Positions 1,346-56,346 of a stretch of 64,000 nucleotides of DNA are shown piece after piece. The position numbers and the translations under genes were made by a program. Under the pieces are notes generated by a model, which had not been told where the DNA came from, searched no databases, and worked only from the letters and a program-made list of their open reading frames with translations. Source of the DNA: a virus. Lineage: Duplodnaviria; Heunggongvirae; Uroviricota; Caudoviricetes. How positions within the stretch are numbered: the first letter of the stretch is position 1; the number at the start of each line of letters is the position of its first letter. The DNA is taken from the IMG/VR virus record IMGVR_UViG_3300042270_000314; one strand, written 5' to 3'.

Positions 1346-1565
1346 ACTAGATTTGTGTTTTTCTTCTATATACCTCGTATTCTTTTAAATACTTATTCAT
1401 ATACCTTTTGACTTGTGTATGGGAACAATTTCATAATTTGGAAACTTTATCTACCCAACCATATTTCGTCAAATCTATTCCAGATTTATCTAATAGTTCT
1501 CTTCTTTCGATTATTAAATTATTATTAAAGTTCCCTAATTTTAGAACTGTAGCTTTATCATGTAT

Positions 1566-2342
1566 TCATGTTATTGTGTGTTTTAAAATTTTTATTTTTT
1601 CTTTTTTGATATTTCTATTTCTATGAACGTCAGATTCAACACAACTATTTAAATCTATTCCCAATCTTTCTAATTGTTTCTTTTGTAAAATGCGTATTTT
1701 TTTATCTCTATTATATTGTATAACGTACTTCATTTTCTCTTTATCTGAATTCATGAATCATCCTTTAACTTCATGGTATTCATCCAAATCAGGTAAATAA
1801 AAATCTGGAAAGTAGTGTCTTTCTATTTTATTAAAATATTTTAATATGTATTTTCTTGAATGGACCCACTTTATATTTTGTTTATTAAGATATTCTGCAT
1901 ACTTAAACTCCCATGTACCTTGTACATTAACATAATCTTCTATATAGGGACAATATATTTTATAATATTTTGTTTTAACAAATCCAGAATTTGAAGATTC
2001 TTCTAGATTTTTTATTCTACCTTTTGAAATAGATTCTCTATGTTCTTTAGAGAGGTGTTTTCCTTTTAGTGGGTGTTTTATTTCTCCCGCATTATATCTT
2101 TTTATATATGTTTCTGCACCTTTAGCAACTCTTTCATCTGTTTCTTTTGTTAAACCCTTATTTCATTCTCTTTTTCCATCAAGTTGAGAATAACTTCTTT
2201 TGCCTTCTCTGTGTTCTCTTTTTAACGAGATTGATTTCTTTTTTCTATAATTAGGACATTGTGAAAATTTTTTTGAGCAACATCATTTTCCATTTTTAAA
2301 TTTATATTTAGCTTCTTGGCCGCACCCATATTCACATTTCAT
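1566..2342 (-). CDS. homing-endonuclease-like protein: N-terminal Cys zinc finger, NUMOD3-like motif (KGKHLSKEHRESISKG) and C-terminal nuclease-like region; 3 in-frame TGA
   Basis: Track ORF 1566..1754 extends upstream through TGA codons to ATG 2340-2342 (MKCEYGCGQEAKYKFKNGKW*CCSKKFSQCPNYRKK...EYHEVKGW*FMNSDKEK...); no TAA/TAG over 258 codons. Confidence 0.5.
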
Positions 2343-6565: not shown

Positions 6566-6599
6566 TATTATTTTTAGAATTTTACTTTAGTTCGTTTTG

Positions 6600-6997
6600 G
6601 AGTAGATGTGGTCCTTAATTTTTTGTTTACAATAGTTTAAATTGTAGTCCTCACCGTCTGAAGATCAAATTTTTATTAAATAAAATCCTCTATTTATAGC
6701 ATGAGCAGTCTTTTTCATATCTTTGTGATACACGGTATTAGAATCTTCTTTTGAGAACGGAGATTTCCACATATCCCATTTTTCTTTGTCTTCTTTTAAC
6801 CACTTCGGGTTTGGATGAAAGGCTTCCCCATTATATTCTATAATGATTTTGAATTTTGGAATAGTGAAATCGTAAAAATATATTTCTTGATCCCGTATAA
6901 ACCACTCCGTACTTCCCTTTATTCCCACATAAATTTCATCAAATGTACAAATTTCTTCTTCTAACAACCAATCCATTAATGGAAAGAACACATTCAT
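6600..6997 (-). CDS. Vsr/DUF559-like endonuclease-domain protein (IIEYNGEAFH motif); 1 in-frame TGA; possibly the nuclease module of the upstream Zn-finger/repeat gene
   Basis: Track ORF 6665..6997 continues through TGA at 6665 to TAA (...YLIKIW*SSDGEDYNLNYCKQKIKDHIYSKTN). Confidence 0.45.
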
Positions 6998-7042
6998 TGA
7001 TTCCTTTGATGCATCATTAAAGTTTACTTGTGATTTTTCTAT

Positions 7043-7891
7043 TCATAAAAAGTATTTTTCTTTACCTTCCTTCTCACCATACTTATCTATGAAAAAATTT
7101 AGATCATGTGAACACCCATCACAGTACTTTTTATATTTTTCTTTCCCTACTAACTCACCATATCTTTTAATAAAATTCTCTTGTGTGTTTCCATAACTTT
7201 TACAATTTTTATTGTATAATTCTGTTCCTTTATCTTCACCATATTTGTTAATATAGTACTCAAGATTCCCATTGCCTTTAGTGTTTTTGGATATATTTTC
7301 ACATCTTTTATTATATAAGTTCTCCCCTTCTTCTCCATATCTGGCAATAAAGGACTCCTTAGAGGTTGAAGATTTTTTACAAATTTCTATATATTTTTTA
7401 GTCCCTTCTTCTTCACCAAGTTTTTCAATGTGGTATTCAAGAGTGCCTTTCCCTTTACGAGATTTAGATACTTTTTTAGAGAATGAATTGAACTTTTCAG
7501 TTCCCTCTTCTTCTCCATATTTTTTAATATAATTTTCTAAAGACGCCCCACTTCTTCCTTTAGTAGATTTAGAAATATTTTTCTTCCTTTGAGAATATAA
7601 CCTAGTTCCCTCTTCTTTACCATATCTAATTTCGTAGAACTCTAGTGTGGATACTCTAGTGTTATTACATATTTTACAAATTTTTTTATATTCAAATTTC
7701 TTTGAATCAAATTCTGTAAAATTTTCACAATTACTCATTAAACAAACATTTTCATTATTTTTTAAAATAAAAGTGTCATAATACTCTTTTAATGTAATAT
7801 TATGACACTTTTTAATATGGCGCAAAAGACCAACTTTTGTTAATAGTTGTTTACCACACATAACACATAGTAAATGCTCTTCTTTAAACAT
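7043..7891 (-). CDS. Zn-finger protein with ~7 tandem ~25-aa YG(E/K)EEG...Y repeats (homing-endonuclease-like DNA-binding repeat protein)
   Basis: N-terminal CxxC..HxxxCH finger, then repeats RYGKEEGTRLY, KKYGEEEGTEKF, EKLGEEEGTKKY, ARYGEEGENLY, NKYGEDKGTELY, KRYGELVGKEKY, DKYGEKEGKEKY. Confidence 0.5.
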   Translation of the reverse strand: MFKEEHLLCVMCGKQLLTKVGLLRHIKKCHNITLKEYYDTFILKNNENVCLMSNCENFTEFDSKKFEYKKICKICNNTRVSTLEFYEIRYGKEEGTRLYSQRKKNISKSTKGRSGASLENYIKKYGEEEGTEKFNSFSKKVSKSRKGKGTLEYHIEKLGEEEGTKKYIEICKKSSTSKESFIARYGEEGENLYNKRCENISKNTKGNGNLEYYINKYGEDKGTELYNKNCKSYGNTQENFIKRYGELVGKEKYKKYCDGCSHDLNFFIDKYGEKEGKEKYFL

Positions 7892-7922
7892 AGTAGCAAC
7901 CTCATCTTAAAATTTTATATTA

Positions 7923-7983
7923 GGTTAGATGATTTAGATGAGGTTAAATCATCAACTCTGGCCGGAGCTGTCCCTAATATTAT
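7923..7983. terminator. hairpin (TTAGATGATTTA...TAAATCATCAA) followed by GC-rich motif CTGGCCGGAGCTGTCC downstream of nrdD; the same motif class recurs at 29177-29222
   Basis: Inverted repeat and GC motif seen directly; both copies lie just upstream of endonuclease-like genes. Confidence 0.4.
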
Positions 7984-27178: not shown

Positions 27179-29130
27179 CTACCTTGCATACCTATAAACT
27201 AAACACCCACAATCCCAAATTCTATCAAATCCATTCATTTGCATATTTTCCCATTCAGTAAGATTAGGATCAAAATCCTTTAATAAACTTGGTAATTTAT
27301 GTTTCATATAAACGGATCTATGTACCAACTTCCCATTAATAATGTACCAATAGGACGGAGCACTCTTATGACTAAATTCAAACCCAAGTTGTTCATATAA
27401 ATTACCATTAGACCATCTACGATCTGCATAGGAAATTATTTCTTCAAATTCATTGTTTCTAACAAAGTGTTTAAATAATTTACTTGCTCCCCCAATGACT
27501 TGTGTATTAAGTTTATTACAAAATCTTAAAAGCTCAAGTTTAGTTTTTCCTGTTATTTTTCTCTTACCAAAAGTCATACATGAAACAAGTTCATCATTAT
27601 AAAAAAGCCCATATCTAATAGACGAATTACAATATCCTTGGAGGTGATTTTGAAGAAGAAAGATATTAGATTCTTCAAAAGTAAGAGATCTTATTTCGCA
27701 TTTTCTAGCATATATTCTATTTTCAAAAATACCCAACTTAGAAAGAAGTGCAGATTTAACTATAGATTGTTTATCTTTCCATTCCGTTTCAAATATATGA
27801 ATAAGTTGAATATTATTTTCATCACAAATATCTGTCTTATTTATATGATATTTTTTATTTTTATTTCCTGAAATTTCAGAATGATAATATATACCATCAT
27901 ATTCAATCCCCAAATTGGAATTTGGAATAAAGATATCTATCTCAAGACCATCTAAAATTTCTTTATTTCCCCTGCGATGATTAATATTCAAAAATTTTGC
28001 TATTTCGTTTTCTGCCTTACTAGTTCCTCCCTTAACTCTACAGGAACAAGAAACTCCTTTATTTATTAATTCTATAGATAATGGTCTGATATTTTTACAT
28101 CTTAAACATTTAACATCGGTCGTTTTTAGAGGACTAAGAGCAAATTCATATCTAGATGCTATCATTTCATAATCATTATCTTTACAATAATTATATATTA
28201 ATGGATATTTTTTAAATCTCGCAATAATATTACTATGTTTATTTCCACAATTAGTACAATAGCTTCTATAACCATTTCTTAATAATGGTGTTTTCTCTTT
28301 TTTACAAATATAACATATTCTTTCTTTTGGATTATTATTTAGAATAAGGTAATATATTTCTCTATGAGTAAAATCCGCATAATAGATGTTTATACTTTTA
28401 TATAATTTTGGGGACTTGTTAAGAATTTTTATGGCAACATTTTGAAAATCATAATTGAATTTAGCTAAAAATAAAAGAAAAATTTTATTGGTTCTTTCTA
28501 ATGAATAAACTTTAATATCTGAAGATTTTAAAATTTTAATTCCTCTATTATTTCTTTCCTTTTTAACATCTTGGTTAGGATCACGTTTTCTTATTAAATC
28601 TGGATTATTTATAGCACATATTCTTGAACAAAATTTTCTATATCCCCATGACTCTAATAATGTGTTAAATGGTAATATATTTCCACAAAGAGGGCATACA
28701 GGAATATTTTTTAAATTAAAAACATAATGGAATATTTTTTGAGATAATATACTGTTAGTAATATTGGATTTAATGTCATTAAAAAACAATTCTATTTGTT
28801 GTATTGTTTTTGGATATTTGTTTTTTAATATTTTAATATATCTTTTGGGGTATTTAACTCTTAATTCTAAAATTTCCTCTTTTGTTAATATAATATCAGT
28901 AGATTCATTAAGAAGTGCTTTTTCATTTCCAATTTTTTCTCTATATATTTGAGACTTAGTCATACATTCATATGAACAATATTGTATATTATGTTTTCCT
29001 TTACTTAAAAAAGGCTCACCACATTCTAGACATAAATCATGATAATAATATGTACCATCATTACCTCTAAAATTTCCTCTATTGCTTAATTTAATATTAT
29101 GTTTTTCTAGATTGTCTCAACAAATAATCA
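27179..29130 (-). CDS. large homing-endonuclease-like protein: multiple Cys zinc fingers plus a Vsr/DUF559-like nuclease motif (LGIEYDGIYYHSE); ~650 aa, 1 in-frame TGA
   Basis: Track ORF 27179..28963 extends upstream through TGA to ATG ~29128-29130 (MIICW*DNLEKHNIKLSNRGNF...CLECGEPF...). Confidence 0.5.
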
Positions 29131-29176
29131 TGATAGTCTACTCCCATAGAATTTGAAATTTAAAGAGAAGTTAGAG

Positions 29177-29222
29177 GGATGTGGGAGCAACCCTCAGCAC
29201 TGGCCGGTGTTGTCCTTCTCCA
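29177..29222. other. GC-rich hairpin GAGGGatgtgggagcaaCCCTC followed by CTGGCCGGTGTTGTCC motif (paralog of the 7923-7983 element)
   Basis: Seen directly between the sheath gene end and the endonuclease-like gene start. Confidence 0.4.
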
Positions 29223-41245: not shown

Positions 41246-44200
41246 ATGAGAGATTATTTAATAGAAAATCATATATGAAAAGATCAAGAAGGGAAAGATA
41301 AATTCCTTGCAAAAGAAAAGAAAATTACAAATGAATTTTGGATTAATTTTCTTGGCTTTCTTGGTCTGTATGCAAAATATAAAGATGAGAACAAACTCAT
41401 TCAATATTTTAAACAGTCTACAGTAAGACTAGACAAAGTTACTGATACAGATTCTGATCTAATGGTTATTTTGAAAGTCATTGATGACAAAAAAGTTATA
41501 CCTGACATGACTATGACCAAGATTACCAAAATGCTCGCCAAAATTAAAATGGGAACATTGGGTGGGCTGGACGAAAATATGTTTAGAGACGAAATTATCA
41601 AAAGAATAAAAGTTTCATCTTTATACCCATATCCACAAATTTCCGCTCTTCTTAAAGATTTTAAGAAAGGAAATAAAACTTTATCTGATATGCTTCCAGA
41701 ACTCTACAGTTTAGCGATGCAGCATAAGAGAGCACATGAATTTAGGGTATTATATAAAAGGCTTTCAAGTCCTTCAGATAGTACCCAGGATGCTACAGAC
41801 GCACCTGTAACTGTTGATACTGTTGTCCCAAAAGTTTCGTCAGTCAAATCTGCATTAACAGGCGAACCTAAGACTACAAATATTCCTGTTAAAACTCAAG
41901 TTATCCCTACTGATGAGCCAAAAGAAATTCCTGCTCCAACTTGGCAGGATATTACTTTATATACTAATGCAAATCAACTAGATCTTGAATTAAGCACATA
42001 TTATCTTCTAATGTATCTGGTTTCTAATAGTAAATCTTCTAGTGATATTCAAACTATTGTTAGAAGTCTTTATATGAGATATACTCCTTCAAGAACAGTA
42101 ATGAAGCAGTTTTTGTTTGACGAAATTCCAGATGAAATCAAAAAGCAATTCCCTACAATCGAAAAATTATATACCCCAATTAAAGGAGATTTTTCTAGAT
42201 TGTCTCCATATTTTATTGAATATGCATTTAAAGATTCACTTCTTTTTGATTTTAGATATATGGTTAGAACTCTTCAGATGAAAGATAATATAAAAGATCT
42301 ATATACAACTTTTTCTTCTTTTTTTATTGAAGATTTAAAAAAATATTTTTCAGAATGAAGAGGCTCTTTAAAAATTGCTTCTAAAGTTCCTGACAAATAT
42401 ATTGATGAATTAGATTCTATTCTTAAATCTACATTCCCAGATTGTTTGAATGAAAAAAATATAATTAGAGCAATTATTATGCTGCGGGGAAACGATTTTG
42501 AGACTCTTATTCATGGCATTTATGGGGATCAAAAAATTGAAATTGTAGATTATTTAGGGCATTTTGCTGAATATATGACTTTGGATACTATAAATGTTGT
42601 GATTTCTATTGAGAGTAGATCATCAAAAGAAATAGCAAAAAAATGGATTTTATTAGATGATAAAAAAAGTGCAGCATATAGATGAGCTGATTCAATGTTG
42701 ACACTTAAAGACAAAATTGGTGATAAATTATCATATGAAATTCTTAATTCTGAGTTAGTGAAGAGAACAAATCCAACCTCCTTTCATGAATTTTATTTAA
42801 AACATTTGAAAGATAATAATTGAACTTTAAAAGAATATATTGAACACTATAATTTACCATATTCTGAATTTATTGAACGAGTAAAATCAAGTAATGATGA
42901 TCTTAGAAAGTATCTTACTTTGGCATTTTTTTTACATAAAGAATATCAAACAGATCATTCATATTTGATTGAGGATCTTGCACTTGAGACTGGCCCAGGA
43001 TTTAAATGGATAGATGTTTATATTAGTGAACGAGAAGAATTTAGTTTGGTTGGACTTTATTGTTTGAATTATTTTGCATATAAAGGAAACTGGACCAAAT
43101 TTGCGTATTTGGTCAAAACTATAGAAAGAGACTCAAAAAACAATTATCACCCCAAATATATTATTGGCGAAGTTAAAGTTATTAAAAATATTTTTAGGAA
43201 GCTTAATACATCTATGCCTGAGTTTCTACTTTTTTATACACTATTAACAAAATTAATAGATGATAAGTTCGATATGAGTACGGTGCAAAATTGGGGAATT
43301 GAAGCAGATTTTATATTTAAGAACCCCGATTTGTTTATAGATTTAAATAAAATAGTAGCATACAGATTACAGAATTTTATTAAATATTTTGAAAATAGTG
43401 ATTATGATTTATCAAAAAGCATAAAGATAGACGCAGCCATTAAAACTATAATTAAAGAGAATGATGATAGTACATATGGTTTCTTTTCAGTTAAAGACTA
43501 TAGGTTTAATTTAAAAACTTTTAATTCATATAAAGATATATGGTTAGAACATGTAAAATATAAAATTAAGATTTCAGGTCTTCATATTCTAAGAGATTTT
43601 AATTATTTAATTTCGAAAGGATTTTTAGATAAAGCTTTTGTTCAACAATTTTTAGCAGACAATATGGACGATGAAAGATATAAAAAAAATGTATATGATT
43701 ATGTATATAACTTTCCGGTATATGAACAAGATGAATTAAAAAAATCTTTTGCCTTAGAATATTTCGATTCAAAAGACAAAATAAATGATTTCTTATTAAA
43801 TCATGAAGATAATGATTGAAGATTAAAATATCTTAATAGAGCAGGATACTATACATCTAAGGAAGCTACTGAAAATATTGCGGAATATTTAGATCGAAAT
43901 TCTTTCATGATTGGAAAGTTATATGACGATTATGGAGTAGATGCCCTAATAGAATATTTTAAGAATGATAATGTTCAAGGGGTTTGGGATAAAATTAGTT
44001 CTGGTAAAAGACTTTTAAATAAGACCAATAGTCTTGAATATATCATGTTAGATATGTTATCTGATAAAGATAAACTTCAAAAACTTGATGATCTATTAGA
44101 TGCATTTCCTAATAAAATTGCTAATTCATTAGTTAATACATTGAAAGATCAACTTTTGATTTATCCACTATTAAAAGATATTTTCAATGATGATAACCCT

Positions 44201-45451
44201 TTAAAACCCTCAATTAAATTAACCCCTTCTAGAATCAAAACATTATTGAAATATAATAACTTTGAATTTAAGGGAGCAATGCTTAGAAAGAAGCCAAGAG
44301 AAAAATGGGCAGATTACTTTGTGCGTGTTGAACAAGTATTAAAGGGAGATGCTCTCATTCCAGATATCAATTTGGAAAAAATTGAGGAAACTCAAGATCA
44401 GCTTAATGAAAAGTCTGTTGAATATTCTAAATATTATAATGGAAAACATGGAAATTCTGCTGTTGAATTTATTGAATCCTTTAATGTTAATATGAAATAT
44501 CCTGAATTTGATCAATTTAGAACAAGATTTGGAGCTAGTGAACTTATTCCAGCTTTCCATGCTTCAGGATTAACAGCATCAAACTTTATTTTAAGATTTG
44601 GGTTTACTGTTATTCCTGCAAACGATTCTTCTACTGTTGGCAGAATGCTTGATATTCATAATATGCTTTTAGTTAAACCTAAAAGTGATGGAGATGCTAT
44701 TGAAGAGTCTAATGATTATATTGAATATTTAGAAAATGGATATTTTCCTGTATCATCACGAGAATCTGGTAAACGAGTTACATATAGTGATTATCCAACA
44801 GATTTATATCATTGGAGAACAATAGATACTGTTGGTGGAATTTATGTAACTAATGTTATTGAAAAGGCTGCTCAATATCTTGGAGATGATGGTTACTCAA
44901 GAAGAGAAGGAACAGTTGGGACAATCTATGAATGTGAAGTAAATCTAGGGGATTATGGACTTCATCATCATGTTGCAGGTACCGGAAACGACTCAATTCG
45001 TTCTCCCGAATGAGCAATTTGTTGACCTCAAGCTCAAATTAACATTGTAAAAGCTCATAAAGTAATGTTCACAAATAAGAAAAGAATTAAAGAACTTAAA
45101 GCTAAATATCCTAATGCTTTAAAAGAAAACAAGTATTTTAAACGATTTGCAGATTATCTTCAGGAGCAAGAAATGATTAAAAGTAAAAATGTTATTACAT
45201 TTGTGTTTCATCAGTGTACAGTACCAACTGCTAAAGAAATTATGCCTTGGGAAGATTTTGAAAAGAAAGTTATTAAGAAATCTAACAAGATGTATGTTGA
45301 TTCAAATCAGTTTGGTATCGGTATAACCTTCCATACGGATAAAGATCTTAATGGTGTAGTTCGAGTTCCATTTACTGATGAGTTTATGGTAGATGACCCC
45401 GAAGGTTTATATTCTCAGTTTCTGATGTTAGTTGATGAATGTAAAGGTTAA
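41246..45451 (+). CDS. giant 1401-codon protein (7 in-frame TGA; no TAA/TAG for 4.2 kb) with a putative C-terminal ADP-ribosyltransferase-like domain (R...SST...YECEV); candidate virion-injected protein analogous to T4 Alt
   Basis: Track ORFs 41462.., 42446.., 42920.., 43907.. and 45065..45451 plus an upstream extension to ATG 41246 are all in the same frame separated only by TGA; C-terminal motifs FHASGLTASNF, ANDSSTVGR, GTIYECEVNLG. Confidence 0.55.
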
Positions 45452-45456
45452 GGAGA

Positions 45457-45476
45457 CGGGAGCTTCGGCTCCCTTT
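45457..45476 (+). terminator. terminator hairpin GGGAGCttcgGCTCCC+TTT (identical stem-loop to 26300-26321)
   Basis: Seen directly. Confidence 0.55.
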
Positions 45477-45480
45477 CATT

Positions 45481-45972
45481 ATGACACAATTTATTAAATT
45501 TTTGAGAATGGATCTAAAGAGTGGTGATTCTAAAAGGTCCTATTTTGGAAAGGCGGCTGCTGGTGCCATTGTATATGCTAAAAAGGAAAAAGCCTTCCTA
45601 GTTCTTCAAAGACAAAAAGATACTATAGACGGATGGAAAAAAGTCAAAGAGGCAGGAACTTGAAGCATTGTTGTTTCGGGAAAAGTTGATGATTCTGATA
45701 AATGACCAAAAATAACAGCCAAAAGAGAATTTAAAGAAGAACTGCGATATAATGGCACCTTTAAAATTTCAGAAAAACCATTTGATATTTTTGAGGATGG
45801 AGATTTTACTTTTACAACCTTTATAATAACTGTGGATGAGATATTTGAACCAAAGTTAAATTGGGAACATTCAGCTTATAAATGAATTACATCTTTTAAA
45901 GATATTCCTGCGCCTATTCATTTTGGAACAAAAAGAATTTTAAAGAAGTTGCAAATCAAATACAAAATGTAA
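45481..45972 (+). CDS. NUDIX hydrolase (163 aa, 3 in-frame TGA)
   Basis: Nudix box GKVDDSDKW*PKITAKREFKEELRY fits GX5EX7REUXEEXGU; track ORF 45481..45663 extended through TGA to TAA 45970-45972. Confidence 0.6.
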
Positions 45973-45974
45973 TT

Positions 45975-46032
45975 TGACTAATAAGTTATACATTAAGCTC
46001 TTTAATGAGTTATATGTATAACTTATTAGTCA
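45975..46032. terminator. perfect 19-bp inverted repeat TGACTAATAAGTTATACAT...ATGTATAACTTATTAGTCA between convergent gene blocks (bidirectional terminator)
   Basis: Seen directly. Confidence 0.6.
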
Positions 46033-46042
46033 TTTTTCCTAA

Positions 46043-47536
46043 TTAGAGAATTACTTCTCCAGTTTCTTCATCAATCATTTCTTCCAATATAAATTTTTTA
46101 CATAACTTTAAATTTTCTTCAAATTTATCTTCTGCTCATACAGTAAGAATTTTATAACCAGCATTAATAGCGATATTATTTTTAAAGGCGTCCCTTTCAA
46201 GTGCTTTAATATAGTCACATTCTTTGTCTCAAACATGCCTTCATTGTTCTTTTTTATCTATAGATCATGTATCTCTTACATGAGATCCATTGCCATTATA
46301 TTCTATTATAAGTTTATCAAATAATGTAAAATCAAACATAAATCTATTTTTTCTATTATTGTATGTTATACACAATTCAGAACTTTCTGGTATACCACAT
46401 TTAATATCTTTAAAATCTGCAATATTCTCTTCAAATAATCAATCTATCAATTCATAAAATAACTTTAAGGATTCTTTGGAAACCGACCTAGTATTTCCTG
46501 ATGATCTTTCACAAAACAAATTATATCTTTTTATGCCCTCATCTTCTCCATATCTATCTATAAAATTGTGTAAATTTTGTTTTGATTTTTCTCTAAATAT
46601 GGTATGTCTTCTAGTTCCTTCTTCCTTTCCATATATTCTAATCATATTATCTAATGTAGGCACACTAGACTTACTTCATCTATTATAAAAAGAAGCTCCT
46701 TCTTCCTTTCCGTATCTATTAATACAATATTTTAAAGAGCCAATGCCTTTTTTGTTACTGCAAACTTCTTTATATCTTCTAGTTCCTTCTTCCTCTCCAT
46801 ATATTCTAATCAAATTGTTTAAACCACAGCCAACTTTATTACAATATTCATTATATTTCTTTAATCCTTCTTCCTCTCCATATCTAATAATAAAGTTTTC
46901 TTTGGAATTTTTAGCAGAATTTACTCATTCATTGTATCTTCTAGTTCCTTCTTCCTCTCCATGCTTTGATATATATTCTTCTAATGTAAGATGTGATTTT
47001 GATCATTCATTGTATCTTCTAGTTCCTTCTTCCTCTCCATGCTTATAAATAAATTTTTCTTTAGATAAAGATTTTGATAAACAATATTCGTCATATTTCT
47101 TTAATCCTTCTTCTTCCCCGTGTCGTTTTATAAAATTTTGTTTATTATTTTTTGTTTTATTAACTCATTCATTGTATCTTCTAGTTCCTTCTTCCTCTCC
47201 ATATTTGTTGGTGAAGAATGCTAAGTCTCTACTACAACCAGCACAGATTTCATTGTATCTTCTAGTTCCTTCTTCCTCTCCATATAAAATTTTTAGTGCA
47301 TGAATACTCCTGGATTTGCCGCATTTTTCGCACAATGGTTTATATTTGCCAGAAGAACTTATAAAATATGTTTCATTTGTTTTACATAACTTACATATAC
47401 CGTCCATATTATCTACTTTAAGATTATTATCATAATAAAATTTAAAAGATATATTATGTTTTTTTGTTAAATGTGTTTTAAGTGCTTTCATAGATTTACA
47501 TTCTATATTGCATATAAGACATATTATTGACATCAA
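46043..47536 (-). CDS. homing-endonuclease-like protein: N-terminal Cys zinc fingers, ~10 tandem YGEEEGTRRYNE-type 25-28-aa repeats, C-terminal Vsr/DUF559-like nuclease motif (IIEYNGNGSHV); ~498 aa with ~9 in-frame TGA
   Basis: Track ORFs 47165..47536 and 46439..46663 share a frame; the intervening sequence is open with TGA as Trp (…YGEEEGTRRYNEW*VNKTKNN…); plus-strand ORFs 46476..46688 and 46743..47048 (SSSPY repeats) are its antisense. Confidence 0.55.
46590..47290. repeat. tandem DNA repeats (~78-85 bp period, core ctcattcattgtatcttctagttccttcttcctctccat) encoding the YGEEEGTRRYNEW protein repeats
   Basis: Near-identical 39-mers at ~46925, 47007, 47163, 47248 and degenerate copies at ~46600 and 46774. 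Confidence 0.65.
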
Positions 47537-47591
47537 AAAACTCCCTTTTATTTTATTTATAAAAAGGAGTTTTTAAAATTGGCGCCAGATA

Positions 47592-48650
47592 TTATTCTTC
47601 TAAAGAAACATCTTTTAGTGATTCCTTAAGTTCTTCATCGATCGTACTATATCCAGTAGCTTTAAGTTCATTATTTATTTTTTCTAACATTTCCCTGTTA
47701 AATCATGGAATAGTTTTTTCGATTCCCTGAACTTTTTCACCTGTTATAACATTTGTACATCAACCAGCCCCTGCCTTAGTAATAAATCCAAATTTTTCAG
47801 CTAAATCAAACATACCATGAACTTTGTTAATACCATGTACATAATCAATATCAACCTCACATCTATTAAATGCAGGGTAAAATCTATTTTTTAACGTGTA
47901 TGCTTTAACTACATTTCCAATTACTGTTTTATCTTTATCATATTTCTTTGACTTTTTGAGCATAATAATACAATCGGCTAAATATTTACAAGCTTTACCA
48001 CCACCTATTTCTTCTTCAGTAGCATAAAGACCAGCATTTGGACTTCCGTATGTATGCCCGGTATAAATACCAATGGAACTTTTCTTTTTAATGATTGTGG
48101 TGAATAACTTCATCATTTGCTTAATTTTTCTTGCGAGGCCACCTTGATCTGATTTAACATTTCCATCTGAAGCATCTGATAGAAGTTTATTTGATTCAAG
48201 ACCGCCAATAGAATCTAAAATAATTAAAAATTTTTCATCTTCTTCTTCAAGTAATTGTCCAAAAATAGAGCTTACATTATCTACAATTGGTTCATAAATA
48301 TATAATATCTCATCAGGGTCTAGACCCCATCTTTTTACAAATTCCCCTGATAGTCCCCCTTCAGTATCTATGATAATTACTTTATATCCTTCTTTTTGTG
48401 AATTAGCTGCACAGATACATGCAAATGAAGATTTAAAAGATGCTTCCATGCCAGCTAAAAAATTCATAGATCTAACAGGCAGCCCCTTAAAAAGATCCCC
48501 AGAAATAATTCTATTTAAATCATAACTTGGGGTACTGATTCAAGAATCACAATTCATGATTTCACTATCACTTAAAATTTCACAATGTACACCCTTAACT
48601 TTTTTATTAATTTTAGCTTTCAATTCTTTTAATGTTGTCATATTTTTTTC
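47592..48650 (-). CDS. uvsX: RecA-like recombinase UvsX, ~352 aa, 3 in-frame TGA
   Basis: Track ORF 47760..48467 extended in both directions through TGA; RIISGDLFKGLPVRSMNFLAGMEASFKSSFA matches T4 UvsX IALSGEITGGMQSGLLILAGPSKSFKSNF; RecA L2-like SDQGGLARKIKQMMKLF. Confidence 0.7.
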
Positions 48651-48653
48651 TCC

Positions 48654-49100
48654 TTAACATTTATACATATCTTCAATATTAAGATCTTCTAAATAATCTT
48701 TCATATTTTTATTTTCTAATAAATTTTTAAAAACATTAAAACATTTATCTTGTAAAAATTTCATTCTTGCTTCATGGCCATATAACATTTCTGGCATATC
48801 ATTTTCATCAAATGAAATGTAATATTCATCAACAATTTTTAAATCTTTAATATGTATAAGACCACTTAGATAAGTATATATAGCAATAATTCTTTTAGCA
48901 GAATCTAATTCACAAGAGAATCCAATAATAATATCATTTTCAAAGACAGTTAAAGTTAAATTTCCATCTAAAAGGGATATTACTTCATTTTCCTCATTAT
49001 AATAAGCAAGCTCTTTACCTAGATACTTATCATCTTTAACGATATCCCAAATTCTTTTTGTAATTTCTACATCTGATAACCCCCGCTTCCATTCATCCAT
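48654..49100 (-). CDS. hypothetical protein (148 aa)
   Basis: Track ORF. Confidence 0.4.
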   Translation of the reverse strand: MDEWKRGLSDVEITKRIWDIVKDDKYLGKELAYYNEENEVISLLDGNLTLTVFENDIIIGFSCELDSAKRIIAIYTYLSGLIHIKDLKIVDEYYISFDENDMPEMLYGHEARMKFLQDKCFNVFKNLLENKNMKDYLEDLNIEDMYKC

Positions 49101-51127
49101 TATACTTCCTCCTTAATAGAGCTATATCCATTAGATTTAATAATATTAAACCTACGATCAAATGTAAACGAACTAATTTCTTTTCTATGAGAAACAATGA
49201 ATGTAGCAAGATTGTCTTCACGTTGTTTGATAGTTACAATATTCATAAGATTTTCAATACCTTTAACATCTACAGAAGAATCCAAAATTTCATCAAGAAT
49301 AAGAATGTTTGGGAGATTTTTGCATTTTAATTTTGAAATGTCATAAAGAGCAAATTGAAGAGCCAATTCTAAAGATTTCTTTTCTCCCCCGGAAAGACTA
49401 CTGGCTGTTGCATTAGAAATTCCAGCTCCCTTGATTTCACAATCCAGCCATCCATCAAGCTTGATATAAAACCCTACGGCTGCCTCTGAGAGGTAATGGT
49501 TAGCTCTCTGGTTAATGATAGGTACTAGACTACTAATGGCATATTGCTTAATCTGGTCATCACCACAGAGCTTCTTCAGGAAGGAATAATAATCCTTCAA
49601 AAGACTAAGATTAGTATTCTTCTTTTTGAGTTCAACATTTTCACTCTTCAGAAGACTCAGTTCAGAAATAGCATTTGCTTTGTATTCTTCAAGCTTCTCA
49701 ATCTGAGCTTTTCTTTCTTCAATTCTATTTTTTTCATTTTCAATCTGAGAAAGAAGAAGATCTCTATTGTACAATGAGGCCCTTTCCTTCATTTCTTTCA
49801 ATTTTGAATTGCAATTAAATACAGTATTAGAGAATTTTTCTTTTGTTTCCTTTAGAGTCTTAATAGATTCCATAATCTCTAAATACTTACTATTTTCTTC
49901 AATTACTTTTGTTAATCTTTCAATTTCAGATTCATAATACTTATAATCCATATTAGATTTTTTAATATCATTATGCTTAGAAATAAGGAGGTTTTCCTTT
50001 TCTTCTACTTCAGTAAGCTCCTTGTTTAATCTATCTTTTTCTTTTGCTTTGTGTTCTCTAATAGATTCATTATTCATTTTAGATCCACAAATAGGACAAT
50101 TATCAAGATCTTCATATTGCCCTTTTTGTGAGACCTTTTTCAGATCTGAAAGGATGGATTCTTTCTTTACCTTATAATCGAAACACTCATCATAAAGAAG
50201 CTTTTCAAGTTCCTCATCGTAGTTTACACTAGTAAAATTCTTCTTACATTCTTCTAACTTGTCAGCAGCATTAGGGTCATAACTAATTCCCTTTAGAAGA
50301 GCATTCTTTTCTGAAAAAGCTATTTCAGCTTTATTTTTAACTACTTCAATATCTTTAATCTTTTGTTCATATTTCTCAATATCTTCTTTTGAAGGAAGAT
50401 CATCCGGGATATCGTTGAGTTGTTCCTGAAGTAACTGTAAGTGAGTATCTGAAATGTCAATACTTCGAATATCAGAAGTGTATTTTGAAACATTTATTTC
50501 TAATGAAGAAATTCTCTCTTCATTTTTCGAAACAGAAGTTTTGTTCTCTAATATTGCACTATCAATATTAGAAACTTTTTTATTAATCTTATTCTTTATA
50601 TCTGAGTATGCTTCAAGATTGAAAATGTTCTCTAGAAATTTTCTTTTCTGAGCTTTAGGAATATCAAAGATTGAAACGAAGTTATTTGGATTATAATAGA
50701 ACAAGGAAATAAAGGTTTTGTAATCAATTTTCAAAATTTCTTCTTCGAGATATTTTTGAAAATCTGTGACAGAAGCTAAAGAATCAAGTTCTTTATCGCC
50801 CTTGTAAATTTTTAGAACATTAGGTTTGATTCCTCGTTCAATCCTATATTTAATCCCATCAATAGAGAATGAAATTTCTACCAAGCATTTTTTCTTATTC
50901 TTCCAATTTACTATTTGATCTTTAGTAATATCTTTAATTGTTTTGCCAAACAATGCCCAAACAATACTTTCATTTAAACCAGATTTCCCTGCTCCATTTG
51001 ATCGTGAAGTATCCTTGTTTTGCCCTGAGATCAAAGTCAGCCCGTGGTCAATTTTAAATGTTGAAACATTAGATCCATATGATAGAAAATTCTTTATCTT
51101 GACTTCTTCTAAATGAATTATAGACAT
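49100..51127 (-). CDS. gp46: recombination endonuclease subunit gp46 (Rad50/SbcC-like ATPase)
   Basis: N-terminus KIKNFLSYGSNVSTFKIDHGLTLISGQNKDTSRSNGAGKSGL...YRIERGIKPNVLKI matches T4 gp46 (…TGRNGGGKST…YYIKRGQKPNVFEI); long coiled-coil; C-terminal LSGGEKK signature and LILDEILDS D-loop. Confidence 0.8.
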   Translation of the reverse strand: MSIIHLEEVKIKNFLSYGSNVSTFKIDHGLTLISGQNKDTSRSNGAGKSGLNESIVWALFGKTIKDITKDQIVNWKNKKKCLVEISFSIDGIKYRIERGIKPNVLKIYKGDKELDSLASVTDFQKYLEEEILKIDYKTFISLFYYNPNNFVSIFDIPKAQKRKFLENIFNLEAYSDIKNKINKKVSNIDSAILENKTSVSKNEERISSLEINVSKYTSDIRSIDISDTHLQLLQEQLNDIPDDLPSKEDIEKYEQKIKDIEVVKNKAEIAFSEKNALLKGISYDPNAADKLEECKKNFTSVNYDEELEKLLYDECFDYKVKKESILSDLKKVSQKGQYEDLDNCPICGSKMNNESIREHKAKEKDRLNKELTEVEEKENLLISKHNDIKKSNMDYKYYESEIERLTKVIEENSKYLEIMESIKTLKETKEKFSNTVFNCNSKLKEMKERASLYNRDLLLSQIENEKNRIEERKAQIEKLEEYKANAISELSLLKSENVELKKKNTNLSLLKDYYSFLKKLCGDDQIKQYAISSLVPIINQRANHYLSEAAVGFYIKLDGWLDCEIKGAGISNATASSLSGGEKKSLELALQFALYDISKLKCKNLPNILILDEILDSSVDVKGIENLMNIVTIKQREDNLATFIVSHRKEISSFTFDRRFNIIKSNGYSSIKEEV

Positions 51128-51130
51128 TTA

Positions 51131-51625
51131 TTATTCCTTAAAAAACAAATTTTCATTTACATAACGGTTTCTTAATTCCATTAAAATAAAGCCTAGATGA
51201 TTATGTTTTACTTTTACTTTTTTACATTTTTCACATTTACATACACCCCAAAAATTATCATGCCATAAGTTTCCTTCGATTAATATATAGGGGTGTGTTG
51301 CTATAAGTTTTTCTTTAATACTCTTATTATATTCAAATTTTTCATATATAATGTCTCTCATTATTTGAACTTTTACATTATTCCAATCTTCTCTTAATGT
51401 CAATTTCTTCCCTATTTCTTTGACAAGATGGGGAGTAGGGCAATCTATAATCCATTTTTTCTCTTTTGGATCAAGGGTTTTGGATGCTTGATAAGCATGT
51501 TCAGCAGTTTTCCATACAATATCATTATATAGAACAAAGGAAAAATAAAAATTACTTAGAAAGACATGTTCTCCCCTAAAAGTTTCAATACTGTTTTCAT
51601 CAAATATATTATAGATAGTAGACAT
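51131..51625 (-). CDS. NADAR (YbiA-like) domain protein
   Basis: FRGEHVFLSNFYFSF...AEHAYQASK...GNLWHDNFWG...HLGFILMELR match the NADAR/YbiA family signature. Confidence 0.65.
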   Translation of the reverse strand: MSTIYNIFDENSIETFRGEHVFLSNFYFSFVLYNDIVWKTAEHAYQASKTLDPKEKKWIIDCPTPHLVKEIGKKLTLREDWNNVKVQIMRDIIYEKFEYNKSIKEKLIATHPYILIEGNLWHDNFWGVCKCEKCKKVKVKHNHLGFILMELRNRYVNENLFFKE

Positions 51626-52025
51626 TAAAAGTTACCTCACTGTCTCCAAATACATATTTAAGTTGTTCCTTAACTGCGGGCCAAGATAACCTATCAAGCC
51701 CACAACCAATTTTAGGCATATAGACTTCTGTAATGATGTTATTTCTCATTACCTCTGCCATATTTTGGAGTGCAAAGCACATAGACTCATAAGAGGGTTT
51801 ACCGGAACTTCGTCTTTTTGTTACAATATTTAATACTGGGGAAACATAATAAGTTTTCCCTACTTCAAGAACTTCATTTCGAAGTCTTTTAATTTGTGGA
51901 TAATTTTTCACAAAATCAACCGCAATACCAGCACCCATTTCAGCATCTGCTGCAATACAATGAGCAACCACAGTATCTTTTTTAACAAAATTGAACAGGT
52001 TTCCCTGAGTTTCATTGATTATCAT
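51609..52025 (-). CDS. Macro-domain protein (ADP-ribose binding or hydrolase)
   Basis: VVAHCIAADAEMGAGIAVDF...YMPKIGCGLDRLSW match the macrodomain glycine-rich and GCG(L/I)DxL motifs. Confidence 0.6.
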   Translation of the reverse strand: MIINETQGNLFNFVKKDTVVAHCIAADAEMGAGIAVDFVKNYPQIKRLRNEVLEVGKTYYVSPVLNIVTKRRSSGKPSYESMCFALQNMAEVMRNNIITEVYMPKIGCGLDRLSWPAVKEQLKYVFGDSEVTFNVYYL

Positions 52026-52318
52026 TATTTGAATTCCTCATAGTTATACTTATATCCATTTGGAATATAATATTCTTCATGCTCATAAATGTTAACCATA
52101 CCATTATAATATGCGTTTAAGGATTTTGATGCTGAAATACAAAAAGGCGTGTCACCAAAATCCCATACAGCCTTTACAAATTTAACTTTAAAAGAATATT
52201 CATCATCCGTGGAATTGTCTTCTAATATTTCAATTTCACCAATAAGACCGGATTCTTTATATTGGTATCTTTTTCCAACCTCAACAAAATCCCAGCCACC
52301 ATTATGCCATGTTGCCAT
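52025..52318 (-). CDS. hypothetical protein (97 aa)
   Basis: Track ORF. Confidence 0.4.
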   Translation of the reverse strand: MATWHNGGWDFVEVGKRYQYKESGLIGEIEILEDNSTDDEYSFKVKFVKAVWDFGDTPFCISASKSLNAYYNGMVNIYEHEEYYIPNGYKYNYEEFK

Positions 52319-52331
52319 AATTTACACCCCC

Positions 52332-52769
52332 TTAATTTACATCACCAAATGACATATCTTTATCTTCTGAATCAATTACAATTTTTGCACCATATAAATG
52401 TTCATAGTAACCACACCAAAATGGATAAAGTTGATATTCTCTTTCTCCATCATCATGAAGTAATTTGATAGCATAATCATATCTTGAAGTTGCTTTATAA
52501 AAAGTTGCTTTAACGCAAAACTTAGGAACATTTTTTAACCATTTCTCTTCATTTACATGAGGAGGTTGGGTTGCATATGTAAACCATTCGTAATGTGCTT
52601 TGATTCTTTTTAGATTCTTTTTAGCAATATCAAGATTCTTCCATTCATACTCAAGAATAGAAGTCTCATCAGATGTTGAGAAAGAATCTCCGGCGCGATA
52701 ATAAATTTTAATTTGATAAGACATATGAACTCCAATATTAAAAGTGACTTGATAAAAATAATCTATCAA
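52332..52769 (-). CDS. hypothetical protein (145 aa)
   Basis: Track ORF. Confidence 0.4.
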   Translation of the reverse strand: MIDYFYQVTFNIGVHMSYQIKIYYRAGDSFSTSDETSILEYEWKNLDIAKKNLKRIKAHYEWFTYATQPPHVNEEKWLKNVPKFCVKATFYKATSRYDYAIKLLHDDGEREYQLYPFWCGYYEHLYGAKIVIDSEDKDMSFGDVN

Positions 52770-52797
52770 GCCACTTATCTATTGTAAATAAAATTCT

Positions 52798-53655: not shown

Positions 53656-53658
53656 AAA

Positions 53659-53892
53659 CTACTCCTTTGATTTAAGTTTTCTAACAATAGGTAAAATCTT
53701 CTTCATAATGATAAAAGCAATCATAATTGGGGATACAGCAATTGTAAACACCCCAAGGAAAAAAAGTTCAGTGTTTGCAGCCGAAATTAGATAGGGCGCA
53801 GCATACCCAAACGAAAAAGCAAACACACACAAAAGAATAGCCCCCCATACATACAACTTAACATAGTCATTCATAATTATCCTCATTACCAA
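53659..53892 (-). CDS. small 2-TM membrane protein (possible NfeD-like partner of the SPFH protein)
   Basis: Two hydrophobic helices; immediately upstream of the SPFH gene. Confidence 0.4.
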   Translation of the reverse strand: MVMRIIMNDYVKLYVWGAILLCVFAFSFGYAAPYLISAANTELFFLGVFTIAVSPIMIAFIIMKKILPIVRKLKSKE

Positions 53893-54281: not shown

Positions 54282-54440
54282 TTTCTAAAAAGTTATCATC
54301 ATATTCATACTGGAAAGACCATTCAGGGCCATACATTTCAAACATTCTTTTTCGGGATTCATCAAAAGACCCTTCAATCACAACATAACAATTTGCGTGT
54401 TTTTGACCACAACCAAAAGTAAATGCATACTTACTCATTT

Positions 54441-55920: not shown

Positions 55921-55922
55921 CT

Positions 55923-56330: not shown

Positions 56331-56346
56331 AATAATCCCCCTGTTT

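Follow-up and report, generated by a model that had tools for sequence, protein, structure and literature searches.

The window, a stretch of 64,000 nucleotides from a Caudoviricetes virus, carries four endonuclease-like genes, A to D, all on the minus strand. Gene A (1347..2342, not 1566..2342 as initially annotated) lies inside a tRNA cluster, with tRNA genes at 877-1281, 2421-2508 and 2798-2954. Gene B (6587..7891) lies directly downstream of nrdD and is a single ORF; it had been read as two pieces, 6600..6997 and 7043..7891. Gene C (27179..29131) lies downstream of the sheath gene, and gene D (46043..47533) starts at an ATG at 47533, just after the Shine-Dalgarno sequence AAGGGAG, and occupies the 3' end of uvsX. 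The placement of such genes beside nrdD, the sheath gene and uvsX, as proposed in the initial annotation, is what we find. The same annotation placed a repeat-nuclease gene at 46043..47536; the gene stands, as 46043-47533, under a genetic code in which TGA is tryptophan, a dependence that had been left unstated.

Insertion into uvsX and the homing interpretation

The uvsX gene of the window (RecA_N family; 47592..48641, minus strand) is shortened by about 11 codons. In a blastn comparison with the endonuclease-less locus L006, window positions 48668-47595 align with L006 7700-8772 and positions 46099-46053 with L006 8752-8798, which defines an insert of 1516 nt (46079..47594, minus strand) in the uvsX 3' end, flanked by a GAAGAA direct repeat (47595-47600 and 46079-46084). 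The captured ancestral uvsX tail follows at 46043..46078 (minus strand), and its codons, MIDEETGEVIL plus stop, form the C-terminus of D. UvsX ends in (I/F)DEETGEVxx* in L006, L009, L010, P0121, P0125 and P0127, whereas the window UvsX ends in SLKDVSLEE*. The cassette sits inside the last dozen uvsX codons and supplies uvsX with a stop codon and a terminator-like hairpin and carries a T4-type late promoter, while the D reading frame continues into the displaced uvsX tail and ends at the old uvsX stop codon. Here a free-standing endonuclease can be followed, to the nucleotide, into a coding sequence without killing uvsX: the cassette brings stop, terminator and promoter, its frame takes over the displaced tail, and a co-conversion-like mosaic lies next to it. 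Between the convergent D/uvsX-tail and NUDIX genes, the backbone has an 18-bp perfect inverted repeat that reads as terminator-like (45976..46031, unstranded).

The hairpin 5' of D (47537..47573, minus strand; outer pairs 47528-47587) consists of a 15-bp core followed by U6 and folds with a minimum free energy of -19.8 kcal/mol (z = -5.2). Its 3' arm includes the D Shine-Dalgarno, the late promoter TATAAATA (47554-47561) is located at its apex, and the same hairpin doubles as a terminator-like element for the shortened uvsX. An equivalent hairpin built from other arm sequences is present at the ortholog locus L001 (z = -5.9), and in both D and L001 the predicted layout is that of T4-type control, i.e., a stable hairpin pairs the Shine-Dalgarno and TATAAATA lies within. 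There are 31 occurrences of TATAAATA in the window (14.9 expected), and it stands directly upstream of all four genes, at 2379-2386 for A and near the leaders of B (7989-7996) and C (29246-29253). In read-through transcripts the hairpin would hide the D Shine-Dalgarno; late transcripts would lack the hairpin 5' arm because the promoter is at the apex, and the Shine-Dalgarno would be free. By analogy with T4 I-TevI, segB and Aeh1 mobE, expression of D is probably confined to late infection.

At the uvsX/NUDIX junction D is absent from L006-L011, the closest uvsX relatives among them, and an ortholog is present in L001-L003. The uvsX nucleotide identity is 81.9% to L006 versus 67.9% to L010, but in the flanks the order is reversed (74-79% to L010, 66-73% to L006). 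The tract at 47595-48668 is thus of an L006-like lineage, unlike its flanks, and this mosaic looks like co-conversion. The L006-like genomes have no endonuclease, and the proposed donor lineage is not among the relatives observed. No INPHARED phage matched positions 44000-50000 in blastn, tblastn with D as query retrieved just eight weak, unannotated phage matches, and a UvsX query against viral contigs found no related loci.

Our preferred reading, at a probability of about 80%, is that D is a bipartite, free-standing EDxHD homing-endonuclease gene of a T4-like phage with TGA as tryptophan, carried on a cassette in uvsX, expressed late and spread by intronless homing. During mixed infection, uvsX alleles without the endonuclease would be cleaved by D within or close to the sequence that encodes the conserved tail, with the predicted cut near GAAGAA|AAGATTGATGAGGAAACTGGAGAAGT of the L006-type (empty) uvsX 3' end; repair by recombination would then carry over both the cassette and adjoining uvsX sequence, as in the intronless homing of T4 segA at uvsX. 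The paralog B would behave likewise next to nrdD. The initial annotation had called these genes free-standing and homing-endonuclease-like, and had taken orthologous positions without a presence/absence pattern, along with a C-terminal domain unlike nuclease folds, as the sign to the contrary; close relatives do differ in presence and absence, at three sites, uvsX, nrdD and portal/protease. The B ortholog occupies the same nrdD site in L012 and is absent in L013 (the far end of the 164.7-kb relative was not retrieved with the C-terminal NrdD half as query). The family member P0002 occupies the portal/protease site, which is empty in the window. Another member, P0113 (locus L016), lies within a split intein of a DnaB helicase gene, and P0014 stands alone on the plus strand amid a long series of minus-strand genes. 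Presence/absence among relatives and residence in an intein are the mobile context of EDxHD genes.

It is also conceivable, albeit unlikely, that D has been domesticated, i.e., that it has lost homing and is kept for a benefit to the phage such as excluding or out-competing co-infecting relatives or processing host or phage DNA. A D ortholog of 56% identity occupies the uvsX locus in a phage with a UvsX of just 52% identity, and the B ortholog (48.5% identity) occupies the B locus where NrdD is 75% identical; the D ORF is intact with all catalytic residues retained, and its expression is, by the hairpin prediction, tightly controlled. Residence at the diverged D locus, where the junction differs and the captured tail is absent, has been long-term and could mean domestication. 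However, the closest uvsX relatives have empty sites, and the captured tail and mosaic uvsX bear the marks of insertion and co-conversion. Moreover, homing and the exclusion of rivals are compatible, since T4 seg genes do both (PMC2988022).

Protein D and the genetic code

Protein D (496 amino acids) begins with a C2H2 zinc finger (aa 4-26, CLICNIECKSMKALKTHLTKKH; 47456..47524, minus strand), which has weak Pfam matches of the C2H2 type. In a structure model of the ortholog P0001 (57% identity to D), which stands in for D, this region is a beta-beta-alpha element with pLDDT 85-93, and Foldseek matches it to the zinc finger of AFV1p06. A CxxC...CxxC segment that reads as zinc-ribbon-like follows (aa 47-71; 47321..47395, minus strand), modeled at low confidence. 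Next are ten tandem YGEEEG repeats (aa 76-346; 46496..47308, minus strand) of 26-29 aa, mostly 27 aa (81 nt), each formed by a short helix and a long helix, with units 2-4 similar to units 5-7. Finger, ribbon and repeats may together serve DNA recognition.

The earlier count of seven to ten tandem repeats of about 25 aa at two loci agrees with our seven in B and ten in D. Its description at the DNA level does not hold: a 39-mer supposed to recur at least four times occurs exactly only twice (a 36-mer three times, a 30-mer four times, a 24-mer five times), whole 81-nt units of D are only 44-75% identical rather than near-identical repeats of about 80 bp, and identity between units is confined to a core of 24-36 nt, so that recent expansion is not supported. 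Tandem Repeats Finder reports no array at locus D because the units are too diverged, and no exact DNA repeat in locus B reaches 18 nt. That the repeat belongs to no named family is borne out: neither Pfam nor NCBIfam gives a match, and the PHROG match is annotated "unknown"; a literature search on "YGEEEG" found nothing. The family is nonetheless large, with about 15,800 clusters at 50% identity (6,764 of them at E <= 1e-10), units of 27/29 aa, copy numbers from 2 to more than 10, and variable positions that are clustered. What is new here is the array, without a Pfam model despite all these clusters; the nuclease type is already known. We are dealing with a large uncharacterised family in which a known homing nuclease is joined to an undescribed repeat array, and if the array reads DNA modularly, it would be a candidate scaffold for engineered nucleases.

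The nuclease domain at the C-terminal side (46079..46486, minus strand; D401/E411/H418/D448/W464) is Vsr-like, of the EDxHD type. A profile of the B/D family matches Vsr-like folds among PDB sequences at E = 0.006-0.03, and the catalytic motif in D comprises D401, E411 (IIEYNG), H418 and D448 (LERD), aligned to Vsr D51 and H69. The D and H are invariant and the E is present in at least 90% of sequences in family alignments of 60 and 90 sequences. By these matches, the nuclease belongs to the known EDxHD homing-endonuclease type of I-Bth0305I, and we infer cleavage activity from the fold and the conserved residues. In the Pfam search, the multidomain D protein has no Vsr match at E <= 1, and neither B nor D reaches the gathering threshold of DUF559 (PF04480), which a few homologs pass, e.g., P0113 with 28.2 bits (cut-off 20.6). 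Pfam also gives no NUMOD match in D, so the N-terminal NUMOD2-like helix-turn-helix feature is absent; two such motifs are a trait of I-Bth0305I and do not define the family, and Hef-type members differ in this respect too (PMC3239194). No GIY-YIG or HNH domain was found in loci A-D by Pfam or PHROG.

FASTK/RAP and OPR/HPR proteins, which carry RNA-binding helical repeats, also end in a Vsr-like RAP domain, and the YGEEEG repeats are acidic (EEE), unusual in a DNA binder; that D is an RNA-targeting enzyme or RNA-binding protein whose helical repeats bind RNA is nevertheless very improbable, given that the best nuclease matches are DNA endonucleases, one of them a proven homing endonuclease, that the gene behaves genomically as a DNA mobile element, and that the YGEEEG array is also found fused to a TnsA-like DNA nuclease.

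The description of D as one gene holds because TGA is tryptophan. With this reading the ORF has no interruption, with nine in-frame TGA and no TGG. Across 39 genes of the window there are 78 in-frame TGA codons versus 131 TGG, and none of the 39 ends in TGA. TGA codons of the window uvsX align with TGG in L006, and those in D align with TGG in B and with a nearly invariant tryptophan of the family. The closest homolog of D is P0001, matched over 98% of the query at E = 1.9e-171. As the initial annotation had it, antisense artefacts account for the plus-strand ORFs at 46476-47048, with PSSSPY encoded by the reverse complement of YGEEEG. Translation table 11 splits the region into ORFs of at most 123 aa plus antisense ORFs, but the corresponding reading of D as a decayed pseudogene with nine TGA stops and unstable simple-sequence repeats is rejected, being effectively refuted by genome-wide read-through of TGA, its fall on conserved tryptophans, the full-length homolog match, the lack of frameshifts, and repeat units so diverged that the repeat finder calls none. 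Under the standard code, every such endonuclease gene in this phage group is mis-annotated as fragments.

Loci A, B and C and the leader RNA

The four loci had been taken for one family. PHROG assignments and hhalign results lead us to reject this in favor of three unrelated or distantly related families: B and D are paralogs, C is weakly related, and A is unrelated. The 434-aa protein B, with seven repeats, is 32% identical to D. N-terminal fingers and a C-terminal EYNG...H motif are present in B and D (C2H2; IIEYNG...H). In C, the supposedly C-terminal IEYDG is central and is followed by a Mom-like domain of roughly 190 aa. Protein C (650 aa) has several Cys fingers, a central Vsr-like core and this C-terminal Mom-like domain; it matches phrog_3339 (E = 2e-118), phrog_559 and phrog_1384, and its nuclease core is weakly related to the B/D profile (hhalign E = 4.6e-4). 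C is a Hef-like EDxHD homing endonuclease. Protein A (331 aa) combines Cys fingers, a NUMOD3-like motif and a PD-(D/E)xK-like core (PDFYLP...HEVKG), and matches phrog_15137, phrog_945 and phrog_9019. The core is the nuclease, not NUMOD3 as had been annotated; NUMOD3 is a DNA-binding motif. The hhalign comparison of the B/D profile with A was not significant, placing A outside that family.

A GC-rich element upstream of two of the genes is confirmed: GGACAnnnCCGGCCAG occurs exactly twice (minus strand, 7958-7973 and 29200-29215), with 0.06 expected by chance. It belongs to structured leaders of one family at B (7892..7974, minus strand; covariance-model match 7922-7974, E = 2.7e-10) and C (29132..29216, minus strand; match 29168-29216, E = 2.5e-14). 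In B the order is GGACA, hairpin P1, hairpin P2, TCTAAC, an AT-rich spacer and the Shine-Dalgarno. The P2 loop AACCTCATCT is predicted to pair with AGATGAGGTT at the Shine-Dalgarno, and in C the loop CTCCCA with the Shine-Dalgarno TGGGAG. Both hairpins show covariation, and the loop covaries with the Shine-Dalgarno. This leader type is common to at least four endonuclease families and marks the exact boundary of ORF exchange.

Among 4227 Rfam covariance models, only tRNAs reach the gathering threshold; at the two leader regions nothing is better than E of about 1, all far below gathering scores. The compact, covariation-supported leader, absent from Rfam, is likewise new here. Scanned over the window and 295 kb of related loci, the leader model turned up no additional copies, and six matches from a pattern scan of metagenomes were discarded as high-GC chance matches. 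The leader suggests a common phage means to restrain and exchange several kinds of selfish nuclease genes. We consider it possible, but on balance doubtful, that two things hold jointly: that the YGEEEG repeats are a new modular DNA-recognition solenoid, joined to two or more nuclease folds (Vsr-like and TnsA-like) and maybe reading DNA repeat by repeat, and that the GGACA-P1-P2-TCTAAC leader is a new cis-regulatory RNA class, maybe giving portable homology for ORF swaps at the start codon.

Relation to known endonucleases and control elements

Vsr-like endonucleases have been described as free-standing or in introns and inteins, with hairpins containing TATAAATA and 3' overlaps with host ORFs (Dassa 2009, PMC2677866), and I-Bth0305I is the described example (Taylor 2011, PMC3239194; PDB 3R3P). 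Like D, the EDxHD endonucleases, including the phage Hef type, carry the Vsr-like nuclease, with its conserved E, D, H and D, at the C-terminal side, preceded by a DNA-binding part, in D a putative one. They share with the D family the free-standing, intron and intein settings in large phages, and with D the 5' hairpins with TATAAATA and the overlap or fusion with host coding sequence; the in-frame fusion to a displaced host-gene 3' tail is peculiar to D. Where I-Bth0305I has two NUMOD2-like helix-turn-helix motifs, D has a C2H2 finger, a zinc ribbon and YGEEEG helical hairpins.

In T4, segA lies at uvsX and segB in the tRNA cluster (Edgell 2010, PMC2988022). The genes of the window occupy the same hot spots as segA (between uvsX and beta-gt, cleaving uvsX), segB and mobC (nrdG/nrdD), and the T4 seg/mob genes likewise have middle or late promoters with structures that sequester the ribosome-binding site, and spread by intronless homing with co-conversion, as proposed for D (PMC2988022). 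Their nucleases, however, are GIY-YIG and HNH rather than Vsr-like, and segA leaves uvsX untruncated. By analogy, D would act as the seg/mob enzymes do, but it falls outside their families. With E. coli Vsr and DUF559 proteins (1CW0, 3HRL), D has the fold and the catalytic Asp and His in common; E. coli Vsr, unlike D, stands alone as a repair nickase of about 150 aa and has a zinc site of its own.

The Pfam DUF7487 proteins (L004) resemble D in having a Cys finger, tandem (K/R)YG repeats of about 27 aa and a C-terminal nuclease, and their genes occur in the same phage group with the same leader RNA as B and C. Their repeats have no detectable homology to the YGEEEG repeats, with hhalign aligning the nuclease core only, and their nuclease is of the PD-(D/E)xK "PDFYIP...IEVK" type, unlike that of D.

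The hairpin of D is of the classical T4 kind known from I-TevI, segB and Aeh1 mobE (PMC2839356, PMC4122927). The B/C leader shares with these hairpins the predicted occlusion of the Shine-Dalgarno, and with the PeSL mobile regulatory cassettes (PMC2839356, PMC4122927) its position at the boundary of ORF exchange. It differs from the T4-type hairpins in its conserved pair of hairpins, with GGACA and TCT(A/T)AC invariant, in its pseudoknot-type pairing of loop to Shine-Dalgarno, and in that the late promoter, where present, is upstream of the whole structure; therefore, late transcription of B and C would not relieve the occlusion.

Gene D at the 3' end of uvsX

Translated by the standard bacterial code, 46043-47536 on the minus strand gives only pieces of at most 123 aa, together with plus-strand antisense ORFs, and all of the interruptions are in-frame TGA codons. 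TGA read-through is a window-wide property: when TGA is not taken as a stop, the ORFs of 80 aa or more add up to 25,408 aa, versus 16,790 aa under table 11, and the 39 confident genes contain 78 in-frame TGA and 131 TGG codons and terminate, 39 of 39, in TAA or TAG. The TGA in the window uvsX (IPwF) corresponds to TGG in the related locus L006, and TGA codons of D (LIDwLFEE, TVwAED) align with TGG codons of the paralog B as well as a nearly invariant tryptophan of the family. On these alignments, TGA encodes tryptophan in this phage. Because TGA is tryptophan and not a stop, D is one 496-aa gene (46043-47533, minus strand; nine TGA, no TGG), and the antisense ORFs are, as the initial annotation had it, artefacts of the repeats. 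Its gene boundaries need revision elsewhere: locus A, placed at 1566..2342, occupies 1347-2342 (minus), and locus B, given in two pieces, is a single 434-aa gene at 6587-7891 (minus) with TGA as tryptophan. A tRNA-Trp(UCA) is not among the 10 tRNA genes found in the window. TGA usage is very uneven, e.g., 10 TGA versus 1 TGG in the ORF 16463-18568 encoding part of the large terminase (TerL), and TGA is absent from the blocks 10004-13626 (18 Trp codons) and 49100-58526 (28 Trp codons).

Related contigs were retrieved via the encoded proteins. In L006-L008, whose uvsX is 82% identical in nucleotides to that of the window, and in L009, uvsX directly adjoins the convergent NUDIX gene and D is absent; in the 164.7-kb relative (L010/L011) a small RyR-domain gene takes the place of D between uvsX and NUDIX, and in L001-L003 a D ortholog follows uvsX immediately. 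The UvsX C-terminus reads ...(I/F)DEETGEVxx in L006, L009, L010 and the homologs P0121 (88% identical to the window protein), P0125 and P0127. The window UvsX ends in ...SLKDVSLEE, and the C-terminus of D is ...FILEE-MIDEETGEVIL; blastn matches window 46099-46053 to the L006 uvsX 3' end with 85% identity. Since the DEETGEV tail now ends D and blastn places the junction against L006, the 1516-nt cassette at 46079-47594, with a GAAGAA direct repeat at both bounds, entered uvsX about 11 codons short of its stop, and its junction is exact. The TAA stop of uvsX comes from the cassette, and the D reading frame continues into the displaced uvsX tail and reuses the old uvsX stop.

The uvsX tract 47595-48668 is of a different lineage from its flanks, i.e., its nucleotide identity is 81.9% to L006 and 67.9% to L010, versus 66-73% and 74-79%, respectively, for the flanks (gp46, NUDIX and a 1401-aa gene). 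Co-conversion in the course of homing would produce a mosaic of this kind. The capture of the uvsX tail, exact to the nucleotide, with the mosaic beside it is new here. The 1401-aa ORF (41246-45451, plus strand, 7 TGA) is kept beside NUDIX in relatives, and its 1404-aa counterpart in L010/L011 has no Pfam family on record.

The likeness to mobile genes drawn in the initial annotation is borne out by presence and absence at uvsX/NUDIX (L001-L003 versus L006-L011), nrdD (L012 versus L013) and the portal/protease site. A B ortholog (48.5% identical) lies directly after nrdD in L012 and is absent from L013; the family member P0002 occupies the portal/protease intergenic site in L004/L005, and the same site is empty in the window. 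Further members are P0014, which alone lies on the opposite strand amid a long series of genes on a 254-kb phage contig, and P0093, located between a DnaB-like helicase gene and a gene run including gp32 on a 198-kb phage contig. At L016 4705-7591, the YGEEEG/Vsr-like endonuclease P0113 comes after block A of an intein, to which it is fused; the intein splits a DnaB helicase, and the next ORF opens with the remaining intein blocks (...ADNHCF...VLSHN/S) and goes on into DnaB_C. Such an atypically split intein corresponds to the "fractured gene" arrangement described in PMC2677866. Across the available 230 aa, the window NrdD shares 94.7% identity with its counterpart in the 164.7-kb genome.

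Repeats, nuclease and relatives of D

From the N-terminus, D carries a C2H2 finger (aa 4-26) and a zinc ribbon of the form CxxC...CxxC (aa 47-71); ten repeats follow (aa 76-346), each 26-29 aa long and most of them 27 aa, and then a C-terminal alpha/beta domain. As had been suspected, the repeats belong to no named family: no informative match was found in Pfam, NCBIfam or PHROGs, the sole family match being phrog_22677, annotated "unknown function". A homolog search with D gave at least 674 clusters, and a profile from 90 homologs retrieved 15,844 cluster representatives at E <= 1e-3, 6,764 at E <= 1e-10 and 1,991 at E <= 1e-30. Among the 90 homologs the repeat consensus is (T/S)LE(N/G)(F/Y)Ix(K/R)(Y/H)GEEEGx(K/R)(R/K)(Y/W/F)xE(F/W/Y), with spacings of 27 and 29 aa in alternation, 2-9 repeats per protein by motif count, and variable positions gathered at the unit ends. 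The structural model is of the ortholog P0001 (57% identical to D; mean pLDDT 86.4), not of D itself, and has a short and a long helix per repeat, then a mixed alpha/beta domain. The array is also fused to a TnsA-like PD-(D/E)xK nuclease (P0081), which argues that it is an independent, presumably nucleic-acid-recognition, module. The YGEEEG module is undescribed and very abundant, and is new here.

The family profile gave three Vsr-like matches among PDB sequences (E = 0.006-0.03). The Asp and His aligned to Vsr D51 and H69 are invariant across the family, and at least 90% of the sequences keep the additional Glu of the EDxHD motif; the corresponding residues in D are D401, E411, H418 and D448. 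These matches and residues place the D nuclease in the Vsr-like "EDxHD" homing-endonuclease lineage (PMC2677866, PMC3239194). The N-terminal region of D differs from that of I-Bth0305I, which has two NUMOD2-like motifs there.

The DNA repeats had been described as nearly identical, with a 39-mer present at least four times, and as recently expanded; neither statement stands. The ten 81-nt units share 44-75% pairwise identity, units 2-4 resemble units 5-7, and identical stretches are limited to the core (A)TGGAGAGGAAGAAGGAACTAGAAGATACAATGAATGA, with exact copies of 24 nt (five), 30 nt (four), 36 nt (three) and 39 nt (two). Locus B has no exact DNA repeat of 18 nt or more, and D has ten repeats versus nine in its ortholog by the same motif count. 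The array is an old protein-level one with some local homogenisation, not a recent tandem DNA expansion.

The reading of these loci as free-standing homing-endonuclease genes with a Vsr-like nuclease holds; their assignment to one family holds for B and D only. B, with 7 repeats, is 32% identical to D and is its true paralog. C is a Hef-like gene of 650 aa (27179-29131, minus) that matches phrog_3339, annotated "homing endonuclease" (E = 2e-118), and ends in a Mom-like domain; the alignment of its nuclease core to the B/D profile is weak (E = 4.6e-4). For A, the PHROG matches are to endonucleases and resolvases; its core PDFYLP...HEVKG is like that of the L004 DUF7487 nucleases, and no relationship to the B/D profile was found. 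The ten tRNA genes lie in two minus-strand clusters, 877-2954 (Gly, Pro, Leu, Glu, Thr, Leu, Ala, Asn), split by A, and 56589-56744 (Met, Arg). T4 segB likewise lies inside a tRNA cluster, and the sites of T4 segA, segB and mobC (downstream of uvsX, tRNA cluster, beside nrdD) are mirrored here, but with different nuclease families (PMC2988022, Table 1).

RNA hairpins upstream of the endonuclease genes

Between the new uvsX stop and the D ATG is a hairpin with a 15-bp stem (minus strand, core 47537-47573; 47528-47587 with outer pairs), followed by U6 (MFE -19.8 kcal/mol, z = -5.2). The D Shine-Dalgarno AAGGGAG is inside its 3' arm, and the late-promoter motif TATAAATA is at its apex; the L001 ortholog locus has an equivalent hairpin with other arm sequences (z = -5.9). 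The window is enriched in TATAAATA, with 31 copies versus 14.9 expected; many stand ahead of structural genes, and A, B, C and D each have one immediately upstream. The same arrangement occurs in T4 I-TevI and segB, Aeh1 mobE (PMC2988022) and metagenomic Vsr-like endonucleases (PMC2677866, section 14); there, the ribosome-binding site is hidden on read-through transcripts and exposed on late transcripts starting within the hairpin (PMC2988022, PMC2677866). Published work already describes this nuclease lineage, its late-promoter hairpin and its overlaps with host ORFs.

B and C have a different element, marked in the window by GGACAnnnCCGGCCAG, which occurs upstream of these two only. The GC-rich element with a hairpin noted before at least two copies is confirmed for both and is actually a structured two-hairpin leader. 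Related loci, compared with the window, and pattern scans together yielded 13 distinct copies of it. From 5' to 3' it consists of (A/G)GGACA, hairpins P1 and P2, TCT(A/T)AC, an AT-rich spacer of 15-35 nt, and the Shine-Dalgarno and ATG. A covariance model of this structure, run on 295 kb, recovered just the known instances, each at E <= 1e-9, with no further match at E <= 1, and there is no Rfam family match. Paired cells amount to 91% versus 66% in shuffles (30-47% in slid controls), cells changed on both sides to 43 versus 11.3 (reached in 0 of 500 shuffles), and 9 of 13 pairs have compensatory changes; the alignment was fitted to the model, which biases these pair counts towards the structure.

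The P2 loop can pair without a mismatch, over 5-10 nt, with the Shine-Dalgarno region of the leader's own gene in 12 of the 13 instances. The pairing reaches past the GGAG core (e.g., CCGATT/AATCGG, CCTATGC/GCATAGG, CCACAT/ATGTGG), and the mean match is 6.3 nt versus 3.9 nt with the Shine-Dalgarno regions of other genes. The leader may attenuate translation through a pseudoknot-type pairing of loop and Shine-Dalgarno. Where present, TATAAATA is upstream of the entire leader, so late transcription would not relieve this occlusion. The genes behind the leader are three YGEEEG/Vsr-like endonucleases, one Hef-like, three DUF7487 (PD-(D/E)xK), one hybrid of KYG-type repeats and a Vsr-like nuclease, two GIY-YIG-like, one zinc-finger ORF (182 aa), one truncated ORF and one NUDIX hydrolase gene; the leader of the last (L032 8107-8189), the sole copy lacking the loop pairing, may be a relic or reflect another use of the cassette.

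Downstream of the sheath gene (window 27179-29216 versus L004 14776-15874), identity between the two is 80% from the 3' end of the sheath gene across the leader up to the ATG, past which the ORFs are unrelated, Hef-like C (650 aa) in the window versus a 323-aa DUF7487 gene in L004; homology picks up again downstream. Because homology breaks exactly at the ATG, the leader marks an exact exchange boundary, much like PeSL cassettes (PMC2839356, PMC4122927), and could act as portable homology for ORF exchange. A covarying leader common to several endonuclease families is new here. Endonuclease modules are shuffled within this phage group; examples are L004 11303-12832 and 14818-15789, P0081 with its YGEEEG repeats and TnsA-like nuclease, and L024b (L024 3789-3870 and downstream), in which a C-like N-terminus is joined with KYG repeats of the DUF7487 type and with a Vsr-like nuclease.

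The split terminase and other neighbours

The large terminase gene is fractured (15099-18568, minus). ORF 16463-18568 (minus) encodes the TerL N-part, a complete mini-intein in the Walker A motif (CVSWDT...IKSHN/S), more extein, a short N-fragment of a second intein (CVPKYTKVCVCDD...) and a GIY-YIG endonuclease with NUMOD3 motifs (Pfam: NUMOD3, 2e-10; Terminase_6N; Intein_splicing; SegE_GIY-YIG). ORF 15099-16484 (minus) opens with the rest of the second intein (CTHNHKF...VISHN/C), followed by the TerL C-part (Pfam: Intein_splicing, Terminase_6C). This GIY-YIG gene is the fifth endonuclease gene in the window, and the arrangement is similar to the atypically split "Terminase" intein of PMC2677866. 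Just downstream, a 144-aa ORF (14630-15064, minus; MKTCLVHRGSMVTV...VFVDDIAIEL) has no Pfam match and looks Hint/intein-like by eye. The 164.7-kb relative has a Cas12f1-like TnpB gene (PF07282; L010 5069-6250) between Band_7 and NADAR genes, and the matching window interval, about 51625-52798, holds other small ORFs instead.
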